Virus record (IMG/VR): IMGVR_UViG_3300006802_012847
Coordinates: 1 to 64,000 of that record
Strand: one strand, 5' to 3'
Origin: a virus
DNA length: 64,000 bases
The position numbers were made by a program, and so were the translations under genes. Under the pieces are notes generated by a model, which ran no database searches, was not told where the DNA came from, and was given only the letters and a program-made list of their open reading frames with translations. Shown here piece by piece: positions 21,938 to 36,714 of the stretch (within the stretch, counting starts at the first letter, position 1; the number at the start of each line of letters is the position of its first letter).

Positions 21938-23599
21938 ATGATAAAATTTTTTAAAAATGAAGATGTAATAGTAACACCATTTACTATTGCTAAAGATCAA
22001 GTAGTTAATAGTATATTTGACGATTTGATTGTTGGTAATATTGGTGAAGAAATCTTTCCTATAATATCCCCCGTTACTTTTTGCAATGACAGTTTGTCTG
22101 GAAGTTGTTCATCTTCCTCCATTTCATCCGAATACTATATAGCTGCTAGTCAGTTTGAAGATCCTGTCGGTTTTCAAATTGGAAGATATGTTCCATCTAG
22201 TTCAGTATTTTATCCATCTGGAAGTCAGTATTATAATGCTAATACAAATCCAGTTAATACAGATGGAACTTATCAAAGACAAGTTTATAATACTATTGAA
22301 AAAATGTATTATAATAATTATAACAATGCTTATAATATATTTGGTATAGATGGATTTTATGCCGCAAATATGTCTAGTAGTCTGGTAAATGATATTTCCG
22401 TATTTAATTTAACTATTCCTCAAGCGGGTGATAGAATTAGAACCAATACTTTAAAATTGAATAACCAAACAGGTGATATAGTTGCTGAAATTGTAGATGA
22501 CGGTAATTATAATTTGATTTTATCTGGTTCTTATTTTATCAATAAATATGAATTGAGTAGTGATGCTAGAGATTTAACCACGCCATTGGACGGATGTGGA
22601 TTAGGAGCATATATAAACGATCCTACGGCTGATTTGTCAGATTGTTGTCCGTCTCCTTCTCCTTCTCTAACTCCAAGTGTCAGCGTAAGTGTTACACCAA
22701 GTATCAGTGTTACACCAAGAGTTACACCAAGTGTTACACCAAGTATAAGTGTTACACCAAGTGTTACACCAAGTATAAGTGTAACACCAAGTGTCAGTGT
22801 AAGTATAAGTGTAACACCAAGTGTCAGTGTAAGTGTAACACCAAGTATTAGTGTAACACCAACTATTAGTGTAACACCAAGTATTAGTGAAAGTGGTCCA
22901 CCTGTGCCGCCGGCAAGTCCGAGTGAAAGTGCTCCACCTGTGCCGGTATCACCGAGCGAGACTCCTCCAGTAACACCAAGCACTAGTGTAACACCGAGTG
23001 AGACTCCTCCAGTAACACCAAGTGTCAGTGTAAGTGTAACACCAATTATTAGTGTAACACCAAGCACATCGACTGGTTATTGGACTTATGTATCTTTGTA
23101 TCACTCATTCCCAGATAGTTGTTCAAAGGAACCATCGTGTGTTTATTATCCAGATTGTGATCCATGTTGGGATGAGGATGGTGATCCGCAACCCACCAGA
23201 GAATATTGTGCAGACGGTTTGTGGGAGTTAGAAACTACAATTCAATCACAAATTGGTTTTGAGCAATTTGGCACCGAAGCTTCAACTGCTGATTGTAATA
23301 CAAATGTTTTGGGTCCATGCTCTAATGCATTCGGCAATATGCAATATATTGCTACAATTAAATATGCATATAATTTTAATCCAAGTGATCATTCTGGAAC
23401 AGCAGCAATAACAGTTATAGGCAATGCGCCTGATACAGATTCATTATCGGCATGTTGCACAGGCGACCATGGACTTACAATTGGCATAGTAAACGCCATG
23501 GACTATGTAACACTATTTACTAATATAGCATCGTATGTAGGAAATCCAAATCAATGTGGCGATGGATCTCAAACCTTTCCATATATTGTGGGAATATAA
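21938..23599 (+). CDS. Structural protein N-half fused to mucin-like S/T/P tract and Cys-rich C-terminal domain
   Basis: N-terminal similarity to the N-half of 20727-21836; (S/I/V)SVTP repeats; many Cys at the C-terminus. Confidence 0.75.
   Translation: MIKFFKNEDVIVTPFTIAKDQVVNSIFDDLIVGNIGEEIFPIISPVTFCNDSLSGSCSSSSISSEYYIAASQFEDPVGFQIGRYVPSSSVFYPSGSQYYNANTNPVNTDGTYQRQVYNTIEKMYYNNYNNAYNIFGIDGFYAANMSSSLVNDISVFNLTIPQAGDRIRTNTLKLNNQTGDIVAEIVDDGNYNLILSGSYFINKYELSSDARDLTTPLDGCGLGAYINDPTADLSDCCPSPSPSLTPSVSVSVTPSISVTPRVTPSVTPSISVTPSVTPSISVTPSVSVSISVTPSVSVSVTPSISVTPTISVTPSISESGPPVPPASPSESAPPVPVSPSETPPVTPSTSVTPSETPPVTPSVSVSVTPIISVTPSTSTGYWTYVSLYHSFPDSCSKEPSCVYYPDCDPCWDEDGDPQPTREYCADGLWELETTIQSQIGFEQFGTEASTADCNTNVLGPCSNAFGNMQYIATIKYAYNFNPSDHSGTAAITVIGNAPDTDSLSACCTGDHGLTIGIVNAMDYVTLFTNIASYVGNPNQCGDGSQTFPYIVGI
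22649..23074 (+). repeat. Mucin-like coding repeats (agtgt(t/a)acacca)n
   Basis: Visible 12/18-bp degenerate tandem repeats encoding SVTP/SISVTP. Confidence 0.9.
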
Positions 23600-23673
23600 C
23601 AAAAATTTATTAAAAAGATTTTTACATGGGTTTTTAATATGTATGAGTAAAATTGAAAGTGTTAATATAAGTT

Positions 23674-34064: not shown

Positions 34065-34122
34065 AAGAGATATTTGGTCAATATCGCTAAACAAAATAGG
34101 ATTCGTGATATATTTATAGTTA

Positions 34123-36714
34123 ATGTCGAATTTATTTAGCATATATAATGAGAACTTTGGAGGAAATGTAGTTACAAACGGAAAATTCATAGCCGTTTCA
34201 AACATAAATTCCAAAACATACTCATGTGACGAAAATTTTTCTAGGATCGGAGAAGTTAGAGTGTATAGAAAAAATGACTTTTCTATAAATTATTCTCTCG
34301 ATAAAGTATACAGACATCCGTTATATGGTACGCAAATTTATTATACAGAACAGTCTTCTAGTGCTGCCAGATCTTCATCTCTTTCGCCAGAACAAAGTGG
34401 ATCATCTTTAGATACAACATCGAGTTTTGATTGTTGTGGAGTATTTGAAATAGATGGCGATCCTACTATTTTCAAACAAACTCAGTATGGATCAGCTTTA
34501 TCTATTTGTGAAAGGTATTTAACAATTGCAGATACTGGTGTCAGCCAAAGTTTTAATAATGTTAATTCTTCATTTGCTTGTGTAGATATTTTTAATTTAT
34601 ATGATCAATCGAATACAGGTTCTTGTGTAACAGAAAATGACTCAACATTTACATTGCCTAATAGTCCATTTTACAGAATAAGCGGATCTATATCATCTAG
34701 TTTTGGTCATGCTGTTGCAGTTTCTAATAACTATTTAGCAATTTCAGCTCCAAATCAAAGTGTATATTCGTCTAATGATGATGGATTAGTATACATTTAT
34801 AAGTTAATTAGTGGTTCATACACATGTGGTTATGAACTGATGCAGACATTGATACCACCGCACACTAATAGTTATTTTGGGTCTGATATTTACTTGGATA
34901 AAATCAACGAAAATAAATTAGTTGTCGCAAATGGATTATCACAAGCAAATAAAGTTTATGTATATCATTTAATTAATGACTCATGGACATTAAAACAGAC
35001 TTTAACAAACAACACATCATCTAAATGGTTCAGACTTCAAAATGGAAATACTTACGAGGAAACACCATGGTTACCCGTGTCACAGAGTTATGGTAAATTT
35101 GGTTATTCAGTTGCTGTAGCTGGGAGACATTTAGTAATTGGCGCTCCTGAAGATTTGACTTATTATGAATATTCTTCTTCAAATGATGCATTACCATTAA
35201 GAAGACGAGGATCAATTTCCAGTTATCATTTACCAACTGGTTCTGCGGATTTTCAATTTGTATTTCGTGAAAAATTATATGGTGACATAAATACTTTTAA
35301 AGACAATATGTTTGGATATGATGTAGATGTAACATCAAAATATGTATTAGCAGGTTCGCCAAAAATTTATTCTCCATTTTCTAGTTTATATTTATCCGAA
35401 TCGATTGGTAGATATAATATAAATCTAGAACCAAATGACTTTGGAGCTAGTACCTTCAATGGACAAGCTTTATTATATAATATAATTACATCTTCATGTC
35501 AAGATTCATTTGATTTAAAACAATCTACAACAATTCCAATTTCTTATAGAAAAAGAACAGATGAATCTTATAGTGCATTTGGTTTGTCGGTAGGATTGTC
35601 TGATGAAAACTTAGTCATAGGATCTCCAATTCCTTTAAATAACGATTTTTATTTACAAACACCGTATGCTTTCGAACAATCTTCTAGTGGTATATTTACA
35701 TGTGGCACAGCTGATTCAGTACCGGCATCGTTTATTAGAATGGAAGATGTTATTTGTGTATGTGATGATCAACATGATATGAATAGTTATGTCAGTGGAT
35801 CAGTTGTATTTATAGAAGAAGGACCGATAGTTGAAGAATTACATGGAAAAGCATTTATATATGATTTTGCAGATTTACAAAAAGATGGATTAGTAGGAAA
35901 TATATTTTATTCCAACAATAGATTTGTAATAAATAATACTGGTAGTATATTAAAAGATTTATTAAAAAATCCAGATGAAAATTATTTAACAGATTATGTT
36001 TATGGTACATATGACAGTCAGATAACTCTTAATGAAAAACAATATATTTGTACAGTAGAGCCTGGTGAATTTAATGTATCTACGAATCCGACAGCTTTAA
36101 CAGCTTCATACACCGGATCTTATAATGTAATAAACAAAAATACGTTCACATTTGAAAATTTAGACATTATTCTGAGATTTATCAATTATAAATTAACTTC
36201 CACACATGTTGAGTCTTGGTGGGATGTATTAGTAGAGGGAGAAGTCCAACAAAGCATATTTGGATTTTTCTCATCTTCTGTAGACAACTATGCAGCTAAT
36301 AGATTGACAAATCCATTAATATGTGAATTAGCAAATAAAAATTTTGATGTGAATAAAGATGGAATTGTTAGTTACGACGATGCTTACATGATCTGGAACT
36401 ATTTTATAGAGAATTTAACTATAGAAAATTATTATCAATATATTTCGCCGACATCGAGACGTAAAAATTATAACGATATTATATCATTTTTAGATTTAAA
36501 AACTGCTAGAAATAGTCAAAATAAGATCAAGGGAGAATTCTTTAATTATAATTATAGCTCGTCGGTTGATCCAACAGGATCTTATTTAGCACCATATATA
36601 ACAGACGTTGGTTTGTATGCTGGAGCTGATTTAGTGGCTATAGCAAAAATAGCTTCACCTATAAAAAATAATGGACAAATACCTATTAATATTGTGGTGA
36701 AATGGGATACATAA
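34123..36714 (+). CDS. FG-GAP-repeat (beta-propeller) protein with dockerin-like motif, fused to structural-protein C-half
   Basis: FG.AVAVS...LAISAP, FGYSVAV.G..LVIGAP, FGYDVDV...LAGSP repeats; DVNKDGIVSYDD; PYITDVGLY....LVAIAKIASPIK end. Confidence 0.75.
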   Translation: MSNLFSIYNENFGGNVVTNGKFIAVSNINSKTYSCDENFSRIGEVRVYRKNDFSINYSLDKVYRHPLYGTQIYYTEQSSSAARSSSLSPEQSGSSLDTTSSFDCCGVFEIDGDPTIFKQTQYGSALSICERYLTIADTGVSQSFNNVNSSFACVDIFNLYDQSNTGSCVTENDSTFTLPNSPFYRISGSISSSFGHAVAVSNNYLAISAPNQSVYSSNDDGLVYIYKLISGSYTCGYELMQTLIPPHTNSYFGSDIYLDKINENKLVVANGLSQANKVYVYHLINDSWTLKQTLTNNTSSKWFRLQNGNTYEETPWLPVSQSYGKFGYSVAVAGRHLVIGAPEDLTYYEYSSSNDALPLRRRGSISSYHLPTGSADFQFVFREKLYGDINTFKDNMFGYDVDVTSKYVLAGSPKIYSPFSSLYLSESIGRYNINLEPNDFGASTFNGQALLYNIITSSCQDSFDLKQSTTIPISYRKRTDESYSAFGLSVGLSDENLVIGSPIPLNNDFYLQTPYAFEQSSSGIFTCGTADSVPASFIRMEDVICVCDDQHDMNSYVSGSVVFIEEGPIVEELHGKAFIYDFADLQKDGLVGNIFYSNNRFVINNTGSILKDLLKNPDENYLTDYVYGTYDSQITLNEKQYICTVEPGEFNVSTNPTALTASYTGSYNVINKNTFTFENLDIILRFINYKLTSTHVESWWDVLVEGEVQQSIFGFFSSSVDNYAANRLTNPLICELANKNFDVNKDGIVSYDDAYMIWNYFIENLTIENYYQYISPTSRRKNYNDIISFLDLKTARNSQNKIKGEFFNYNYSSSVDPTGSYLAPYITDVGLYAGADLVAIAKIASPIKNNGQIPINIVVKWDT

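Follow-up and report, generated by a model that had tools for sequence, protein, structure and literature searches.

Genes for a candidate mucin-type O-glycosylation system next to a repeat-rich structural gene in a jumbo phage

Results

A repeat-tract gene is followed by six enzyme genes

The window analyzed in this study is a stretch of 64,000 nucleotides of viral DNA, the first part of a contig of 100,318 bp (IMG/VR virus record IMGVR_UViG_3300006802_012847) that is estimated to be ~36% complete. The GC content of the window is ~31%. According to PHROG matches (tape-measure-like protein, baseplate wedge, sheath, split large terminase, portal, major head protein, primase and SbcCD), the source is a contractile-tailed jumbo phage. 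Within the window, an open reading frame (ORF) for a protein with a long Ser/Thr/Pro-rich repeat tract is followed by an island of six co-oriented, tightly packed genes. These encode, in this order, a double GT60-like glycosyltransferase, a first paralogue of a putative GT-B-like family, an O-carbamoyltransferase, a four-domain protein and two more of the putative GT-B-like paralogues. An initial annotation had proposed that the interval from 21938 to 36714 encodes a system by which the phage initiates, extends and caps O-glycans on its own mucin-like tail appendage, and its placement of the six genes directly after the structural ORF was confirmed by the ORF map. The tract gene, the island and the flanking structural genes all lie on the plus strand.

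The tract protein (ORF 21938-23599, 553 aa) consists of an N-terminal domain of ~230 aa (21938..22642), a repeat tract of ~140 aa (22643..23062) and a Cys-rich C-terminal domain of 178 aa (23063..23599) with 10 Cys residues. The N-terminal domain is kept in all relatives in homologue alignments and is likely the anchor to baseplate or fibre; the Cys-rich domain varies between relatives and is likely the distal tip. Neither domain produced anything above the Pfam cut-offs, even at E values up to 1, and an ESM-Atlas search with the N-terminal domain gave no useful match. The (S/I)VTP repeat tract, the proposed O-glycan acceptor, covers residues ~236-375 and is built of SVTP/SISVTP-type units, with 39 Ser, 21 Thr, 33 Pro and 27 Val among 140 residues. 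Both the repeats and the Cys-rich tip are readily seen in the translation, as initially described. On the DNA level the tract corresponds to a tandem array at 22687-23057 with periods of 12, 18, 24, 30 and 42. Only two ORFs on the 100-kb contig are this rich in Pro, Thr and Ser. The second one, an SVTPSVSVTP-repeat ORF at contig positions 99534-100318, lies outside the window, ~63 kb from the island, and is cut by the contig end. Like the first, it has a Cys-Cys motif before the repeats, and it is likely a further acceptor.

Near-identical DNA was found in metagenomes of several studies from 2017-2025, mostly labelled freshwater and in some cases marine, lagoon or seawater; none of the public runs listed with this DNA was an RNA run. 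Four other runs, from four studies, contained contigs over the region at 99% identity. One independent contig of 9.4 kb extends from the tract end through the GT60-like gene, paralogue 1 and the carbamoyltransferase gene into the four-domain gene. Since this contig bridges tract and island at 99% identity, their adjacency is no assembly artefact. All four independent assemblies break inside the repeat, and differences concentrate at its 3' end: a 6-nt deletion at 22652 is common to the four other runs, and substitutions accumulate at 22980-23056. The repeat tract is hypervariable between metagenomes and the island is ~99% conserved. The summed word depth in the tract bin reached 20-60x that of neighbouring bins, so that many other genes in the samples must share the repeat words.

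The first island enzyme is a duplicated GT60-like transferase resembling mucin-type initiators

The first island gene (23674-26373, 899 aa) encodes the double Gnt1-like transferase that had been predicted, and PF11397 matches both of its units (E = 5e-122; 408.1 bits compared to a cut-off of 21). Scored separately, the units reached 209 and 132 bits. By its sequence the enzyme is a member of the GT60 family. Unit 1 (23674..25014) comprises a Lys-rich disordered leader, a GT-A domain and a C-terminal domain of ~110 aa, which matched no Pfam family at E values up to 1. Unit 2 (25015..26373) has the same architecture; the only match of the GT2 type (24 bits) lies within it. In an alignment of 11 GT60-like units from the window and related viral contigs, D127-S128-H129, E241-E242 and the histidine of the WH motif (H266) were invariant in all units. 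Both halves of the phage enzyme look intact, because these residues are kept in unit 2 as well. In relatives, the GT60-like gene occurs in single (409-457 aa) or double (867-885 aa) form.

Based on the 11-unit alignment, unit 1 was modelled with AF2 (pLDDT 78, pTM 0.75). The model has a GT-A fold with a candidate DxH-type metal motif. Comparison with the PDB by Foldseek returned polypeptide GalNAc-transferases (ppGalNAc-Ts) as all of the top 34 matches (E ~1e-10). Exhaustive alignment to 48,161 chains gave Z 20.4 for mouse GalNAc-T1 (275 residues, 3.6 A) and Z 19.1 for Toxoplasma TgGalNAc-T3; the next GT-A enzyme after both was SpsA with Z 16.7, 2.4-3.7 Z lower. The modelled enzyme is most like the initiators of mucin-type O-glycans in shape. 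Sequence and profile searches of the PDB with the GT60-like protein found no true relative, and the FABP matches that appeared (E at least 0.04) were discarded as chance matches.

Putative extending and tailoring enzymes of the island

Paralogue 1 (26373..27368, 331 aa) is a candidate chain-extending transferase. The following gene (27411..29036) encodes an O-carbamoyltransferase of the NodU/CmcH/TobZ type of 541 aa, with matches to PF16861 (213.7 bits, cut-off 27), PF02543 (87.9 bits, cut-off 24) and phrog_1601. In the PDB it matched NovN (5e-51), GdmN (5e-50) and TobZ (1e-41). Its N-terminal ~90 residues lie outside the family profile match.

The four-domain protein (29042..32173, 1043 aa) was assigned by Pfam and PDB matches. 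It starts with an FkbM domain (PF05050, 41.8 bits compared to a cut-off of 22.7), followed by a second methyltransferase domain that matches the sugar O-methyltransferases MycE (7e-13) and TylE (3e-10) in the PDB. The third domain is HtrL_YibB (PF09612, a putative GT-A transferase), which matched nearly the whole profile with 45.3 bits (cut-off 24.1) and reached 51.2 bits when the domain was searched alone. For the C-terminal domain, the orthologue in the related contig G006 matches Glycos_transf_2 weakly, below the cut-off (20.9 compared to 23.3 bits).

Paralogue 2 (32130..33113) and paralogue 3 (33132..34064, 310 aa) are 59% identical in an alignment that begins at residue 12, and the true start of paralogue 2 is probably the ATG at 32163. 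Paralogues 1 and 3 share 32% identity over the C-terminal 128 aa. None of the three proteins of 310-331 aa matched a Pfam family, even at E values up to 1. In the ESM-Atlas, paralogue 3 fell to clusters carrying PF13524/GT90/RXYLT1_C (feature score 0.96, TM 0.6-0.72); a single-sequence AF2 model of it (pLDDT 28.6) was unusable. No membrane segment was predicted in any island protein.

The Pfam search recovered all of the families expected from the initial annotation (PF11397 twice, PF02543/PF16861, FkbM and HtrL). The fourth gene had been described there as an MTase-MTase-GT-GT protein, which holds for the FkbM, MycE/TylE-like and HtrL domains; the last domain is GT2-like weakly, by way of the G006 orthologue. 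For the genes termed GT-B-like, the paralogy stands and the fold itself is a lead from the ESM-Atlas.

Tract and island are present or absent together in related phages

Two conserved structural genes (20074..21836), which encode proteins of 214 aa and 369 aa and lie downstream of baseplate-wedge genes, form the left flank of a variable slot. The slot was surveyed by fetching 80 copies with the conserved upstream 214-aa protein and annotating them; 71 of these were informative. Both flanking genes were present in 80/80 loci, with identities of 62-96% for the 214-aa protein and 41-68% for the 369-aa protein. The right flank is formed by a structural protein of 863 aa with FG-GAP repeats (34123..36714, PF14312). 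This last part of the interval that had initially been assigned to the glycosylation system is thus a conserved structural gene and holds no enzyme. The order of the genes does not vary: the genes for the 214-aa and 369-aa proteins are followed by a homologue of the N-terminal domain of the tract protein, the variable part, the FG-GAP gene, two small genes and primase.

A long Ser/Thr/Pro tract together with an enzyme island was found at 11 loci, including the window. At 60 loci there was no such tract and no island, and the FG-GAP gene directly followed the N-domain gene (60/60), which encoded 206-248 aa except in L213, where it encoded 376 aa. Neither a tract without an island nor an island without a tract was observed at any locus. 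Five more loci had a tract at which the contig ended in or just past the tract, and at two the N-domain gene was cut by the contig end, leaving the state of tract and island indeterminate. Hence, tract and island were concordant in 71/71 informative loci (11 both, 60 neither, 0 discordant). In L213, where the island is absent, the longer protein ends in an extension that is attached through a short linker rich in Pro and free of Ser/Thr clusters. In a rapid maximum-likelihood tree built from the flanking genes, the tract/island state appeared at three or more separate places, and the main clade contained one loss, which suggests about four coupled changes of tract and island, at least 3-4. Because neither occurs without the other in these relatives, it is most likely that the phage puts sugars on its own appendage. 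The survey thus bore out the initially proposed check that repeat-rich structural genes should co-occur with GT60 genes across related phages.

The content of the island differs between relatives. G006 has a double GT60 and an FkbM-HtrL-GT2 fusion. In G005, L201, L205 and L278 a single GT60 is accompanied by GT4-like and GT25 genes and by a second tract protein, and further island types were seen in L203 and in L212 and L255. Among 14 large contigs assembled from the fetched pieces, tract-rich ORFs were found in 7/7 with a full-length GT60 and in 1/7 without, namely G007. In G007 (= L215) the tract is of the type (TP)~80 and GT60 is missing; an alternative island occupies the same slot. This island (L155:5579-9425 = G007:C1:25579-29425) encodes a GT32-like transferase with a DXD motif, an ORF of 182 aa and, on the opposite strand, a 2-oxoglutarate (2OG)-Fe(II) oxygenase (PF13640), a family that includes the prolyl 4-hydroxylases, which act on peptides. 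That other enzymes, one of them of a peptide-modifying type, lie in the same slot and beside the same kind of tract would be difficult to account for if the tract were not the target. As far as its gene families indicate, the G007 island resembles a version of the module that uses hydroxyproline. No prolyl hydroxylase was found on the window contig, G005, G006 or XacN1.

Several observations concern the genes around the island. The tract protein and the FG-GAP protein show no similarity to each other. In L279, the most divergent relative, the N-terminal domain and the FG-GAP protein are joined in one ORF of at least 774 aa (L279:11785-14106), so both may form a single structural unit, divided in the window phage; this fused ORF is the sole support for a split gene. 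A C-terminal motif of the FG-GAP protein also occurs in the protein at 20727. The large terminase is split in two ORFs, and the terminase/portal region lies at window positions 49635-51717 and 51742-54762; the portal ORF (1006 aa) has an insert resembling an HNH endonuclease at residues ~198-298. Promoter and terminator scans of the region gave no excess over the shuffled expectation, and operon boundaries can therefore not be claimed. Among 50,697 phage records, neither the whole region (megablast) nor the tract protein (tblastn) found a match.

GT60-like genes in distant phages and in bacteria

Distant viral contigs were found by means of the GT60-like protein. In L005, L006, L007 and L010/L011, unrelated Pro/Thr (PT)-rich ORFs are located upstream of GT60, either adjacent to it or one gene away. 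L008/L009 have no such ORF beside GT60, and in L012 the nearest is ~5 kb away. The Xanthomonas phages XacN1 and Xoo-sp13 encode orthologues of the GT60 (43-45% identity), the carbamoyltransferase (46-48%) and the HtrL-type protein (38-39%) in one cluster, which adjoins baseplate-wedge genes and a protein of ~3300 aa with PT tracts. There are 15 PT-dense ORFs in XacN1 and 12 in Xoo-sp13. Dense tracts of the TPT type are present in XacN1 (AP018399.1, 83-280 kb) and Xoo-sp13 (MN047793.1), with six adjacent paralogues at 124-133 kb of XacN1. XacN1 virions contain at least two proteins positive in periodic acid-Schiff staining, and the authors suggested that these are made by the phage's own transferases; their genome paper draws no link between the ORF334 glycosyltransferase and the PT tracts (PMC5852040).

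Species-representative genomes of bacteria and archaea yielded >350 stretches encoding GT60-like genes. An HtrL-type gene adjoins the GT60-like gene in about half of 71 bacterial loci scored, and the HtrL half of the four-domain protein has the same neighbour in L005-L007 and XacN1. Within three genes of bacterial GT60-like genes, 24/376 ORFs were tract-rich, compared to 6/411 further away (odds ratio 4.6, p = 3e-4).

In beta-proteobacteria, a GT60-like gene was found inside a type VI secretion cluster, in the order TssF, TssG, TssA, a fimbrial-like protein and GT60. The opposite strand of this cluster encodes TagF, TssM and a VgrG whose end is formed by a (TP)n tract. Such loci are L341:1-17314 (Ralstonia chromosome) and also L357, L340, L313, L342 and L348. 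The gene order suggests that enzyme and tract are paired on a bacterial contractile-machine spike, too.

Discussion

Proposed pathway

Taken together, we consider it probable that the phage encodes a cytoplasmic mucin-type O-glycosylation of its own baseplate-side stalk, known so far from its genes, in which the glycans are extended and then capped by methyl and carbamoyl groups. During late gene expression, the GT60 units would transfer a HexNAc (N-acetylhexosamine), probably GlcNAc from host UDP-GlcNAc, onto Thr/Ser of the tract. Thr/Ser rather than hydroxyproline is the presumed acceptor, since no prolyl hydroxylase was found in the window phage. The three GT-B-like paralogues, together with the HtrL-type and GT2-like domains, would extend the chain. 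Terminal sugars would then be O-methylated by the FkbM and MycE-like domains and O-carbamoylated by the carbamoyltransferase, and the glycosylated protein would be built into the virion, where the coated tract could form an extended, protease-resistant stalk bearing the variable tip.

With respect to the initial annotation, the enzyme families, the co-occurrence of tract and GT60 and the initiator fold are supported. That the tract is the acceptor and that the six genes build one glycan is what we infer from these data; donor sugar, linkage and order of enzyme action are suggested by homology, and stiffening, shielding and adhesion are conceivable benefits. The locus most likely represents virus-encoded glycosylation of the virion in a form for which no paper was found. 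In the literature, we found no description of a phage system with GT60/PF11397, of O-glycosylated tail fibres of this kind or of VgrG glycosylation.

Several points weigh against this interpretation. The coupled changes of tract and island are few (about four) and the 71 loci are related, so that Fisher values overstate independence. As tract and island are adjacent DNA, one recombination event can move both. Tail-fibre regions are hot spots for accessory islands, and adjacency is possible without a functional relation. PT-rich linkers are common and often unglycosylated. The position of the tract protein as a baseplate-side appendage of the virion is deduced from gene order, and the naming of the three paralogues as GT-B-like follows a lead from the ESM-Atlas. 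Finally, three relatives, including the complete 296-kb genome G015, have a short GT60-like gene (309-314 aa) and no tract-rich ORF, so that in some phages GT60-like enzymes must act on other acceptors. The short genes are without the ~110-aa C-terminal domain and lie ~6 kb past baseplate genes, at L176:5407-6351 (G015), L184:12483-13412 (G014) and G016:C1:58978-59904.

Alternative explanations

The island could instead remodel glycans of the host envelope, such as lipopolysaccharide (LPS), capsule or S-layer, for example to block superinfection or to release progeny, the tract being a flexible linker that travels along in a recombination hot spot. This is the usual reading of clusters of glycosyltransferase, carbamoyltransferase and methyltransferase genes in cyanophage papers (PMC12801897). 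It would fit the variable slot in which the island lies, and HtrL/YibB is named after an LPS-related gene of E. coli. Yet the island encodes no membrane protein, flippase, polymerase or lipid-carrier priming enzyme, its proteins lack predicted membrane segments, and its presumed initiator belongs to a family whose characterized members all take polypeptides and has a modelled fold nearest to the ppGalNAc-Ts. Envelope remodelling would also leave the coupling of tract and island without explanation, given 0/71 discordant loci, and it does not account for the 2OG oxygenase of a family with prolyl 4-hydroxylases in the alternative island of G007 or for the absence of the island in L213, where the extension is without Ser/Thr clusters. 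We therefore regard it as unlikely.

Alternatively, the enzymes might glycosylate virion proteins with the main acceptor elsewhere, i.e. on the FG-GAP protein, the Cys-rich tip, the capsid or short Ser/Thr motifs of many structural proteins. The relatives with short GT60-like genes and no tract-rich ORF speak for this, as do mycobacteriophages, in which C-termini of capsid and tail-tube proteins are glycosylated, as summarized in PMC12619734. The presence/absence pattern argues in the other direction: the island is absent in 60/60 relatives that have the FG-GAP and other structural genes and no tract, and it is the full-length GT60 with the extra C-terminal domain that tracks the tract. A main acceptor outside the tract seems as improbable to us as envelope remodelling.

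That the island serves to hypermodify the phage DNA with glycosyl, carbamoyl or methyl groups on hydroxymethyl-pyrimidines, and thereby to evade restriction, is very improbable, as neither its position nor its coupling to a tract in a structural gene would be explained, some phages have the island and others do not, although they all keep the primase and structural genes that flank it, and the 100-kb contig encodes no thymidylate-synthase (TS)-like hydroxymethylase and no TET/JBP gene, an absence which is weak evidence because the contig covers only ~36% of the genome. The TS homologues of XacN1, Xoo-sp13 and G002 keep the Asn that marks dUMP-type enzymes, and not the Asp of dCMP hydroxymethylases. 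What favours DNA as the substrate is a NodU-type phage enzyme that carbamoylates 5-hydroxymethylcytosine (5hmC) in DNA (Yang et al. 2021, PMC8670742), glycans built on DNA by phage glycosyltransferases (Pyle et al. 2024, as reported in a citing paper) and a very weak match (E 0.038, below cut-off) between the C-terminal domain of the four-domain protein and the TET-associated glycosyltransferase family. The carbamoyltransferases flanked by glycosyltransferases, though, lay on unmodified contigs (PMC8670742).

A possible wider role and its consequences

Beyond glycosylation of the phage's own stalk, a wider role can be put forward tentatively, and we hold it to be somewhat less probable than not. 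GT60-like initiators, usually with an HtrL-type transferase, might represent a widespread and so far undescribed prokaryotic mucin-type O-glycosylation dedicated to Pro/Thr/Ser stalks on contractile machines, i.e. phage baseplate fibres and the VgrG spikes of type VI clusters of Ralstonia, Achromobacter, Burkholderia and relatives. One chemistry could then replace another, as in the sister phage with P4H-like and GT32-like enzymes in the same slot, and the glycans would bear methyl and carbamoyl groups as unusual caps.

To our knowledge, a few actinophages and the giant viruses are the only cases in which self-glycosylation of the particle is established, and experimental knowledge of GT60 enzymes is confined to those of protists. 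If the proposal holds, many jumbo phages of aquatic habitats and of plant pathogens would use enzymes that they encode to build mucin-like stalks inside the bacterial cytoplasm, and spikes of bacterial type VI secretion might also carry mucin-like glycoprotein stalks. This would bear on the resistance of appendages to proteases and grazers, on the sticking of phages to surfaces or mucus, on the recognition of phages by antibodies in therapy and on bacterial cells as makers of mucin-type glycoproteins. The presence/absence series within the lineage and the cultured phage XacN1 make the idea directly testable.

Comparison with known systems

Among characterized GT60 enzymes, Dictyostelium Gnt1 acts on hydroxyproline of Skp1, and OGNT of Trypanosoma cruzi modifies Thr in mucins rich in Thr and Pro. 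The phage enzyme is similar to these protist enzymes, with PF11397 far above the cut-off in both units, a GT-A fold and a DxH-type motif. It is predicted to be soluble like the cytoplasmic Gnt1, and its presumed acceptor, a Thr/Ser/Pro tract, resembles the mucins of T. cruzi. In contrast to the protist enzymes, it is prokaryotic-viral and internally duplicated and has an extra C-terminal domain of ~110 aa per unit; moreover, the phage island adds carbamoyl and methyl tailoring enzymes, and the window phage is without a prolyl hydroxylase. The ppGalNAc-Ts of family GT27 provide the closest solved structures. Both types of enzyme combine a catalytic domain with an appended C-terminal domain and would share tandem Ser/Thr/Pro sequences as substrate type. 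Sequence identity is, however, only 13-20%, and the phage enzyme has no ricin-type lectin domain detectable by Pfam, no membrane anchor and no secretory pathway. Judging from the model, the phage enzyme would work like GT27 and is not a member by sequence.

As in mycobacteriophages (Freeman et al. 2023, as reported in citing papers), chlorella viruses and mimiviruses, in which viral transferases encoded near structural genes act on the virus's own particle proteins with no host secretory pathway, the transferases of the window lie next to a structural gene. The enzymes of those viruses belong to another family, and their targets are C-termini of capsid and tail-tube proteins or an N-linked capsid site, whereas here a long internal tandem tract in a baseplate-side protein is the presumed acceptor. 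Since the presumed acceptor type differs from the C-terminal extensions of mycobacteriophages, the phage system would be an analogue and not a member of that group. The tailoring set of the phage island is also more elaborate than in mycobacteriophages and giant viruses.

The clusters of XacN1 and Xoo-sp13 differ from that of the window in that their GT60 is single and both the FkbM/MycE fusion and the three GT-B-like paralogues are missing, and their tracts are spread over 12-15 genes genome-wide. The carbamoyltransferases NovN and TobZ modify sugar hydroxyls. With NovN, GdmN and TobZ the phage enzyme shares both family domains, and it differs from them in its presumed substrate, a glycan linked to protein.

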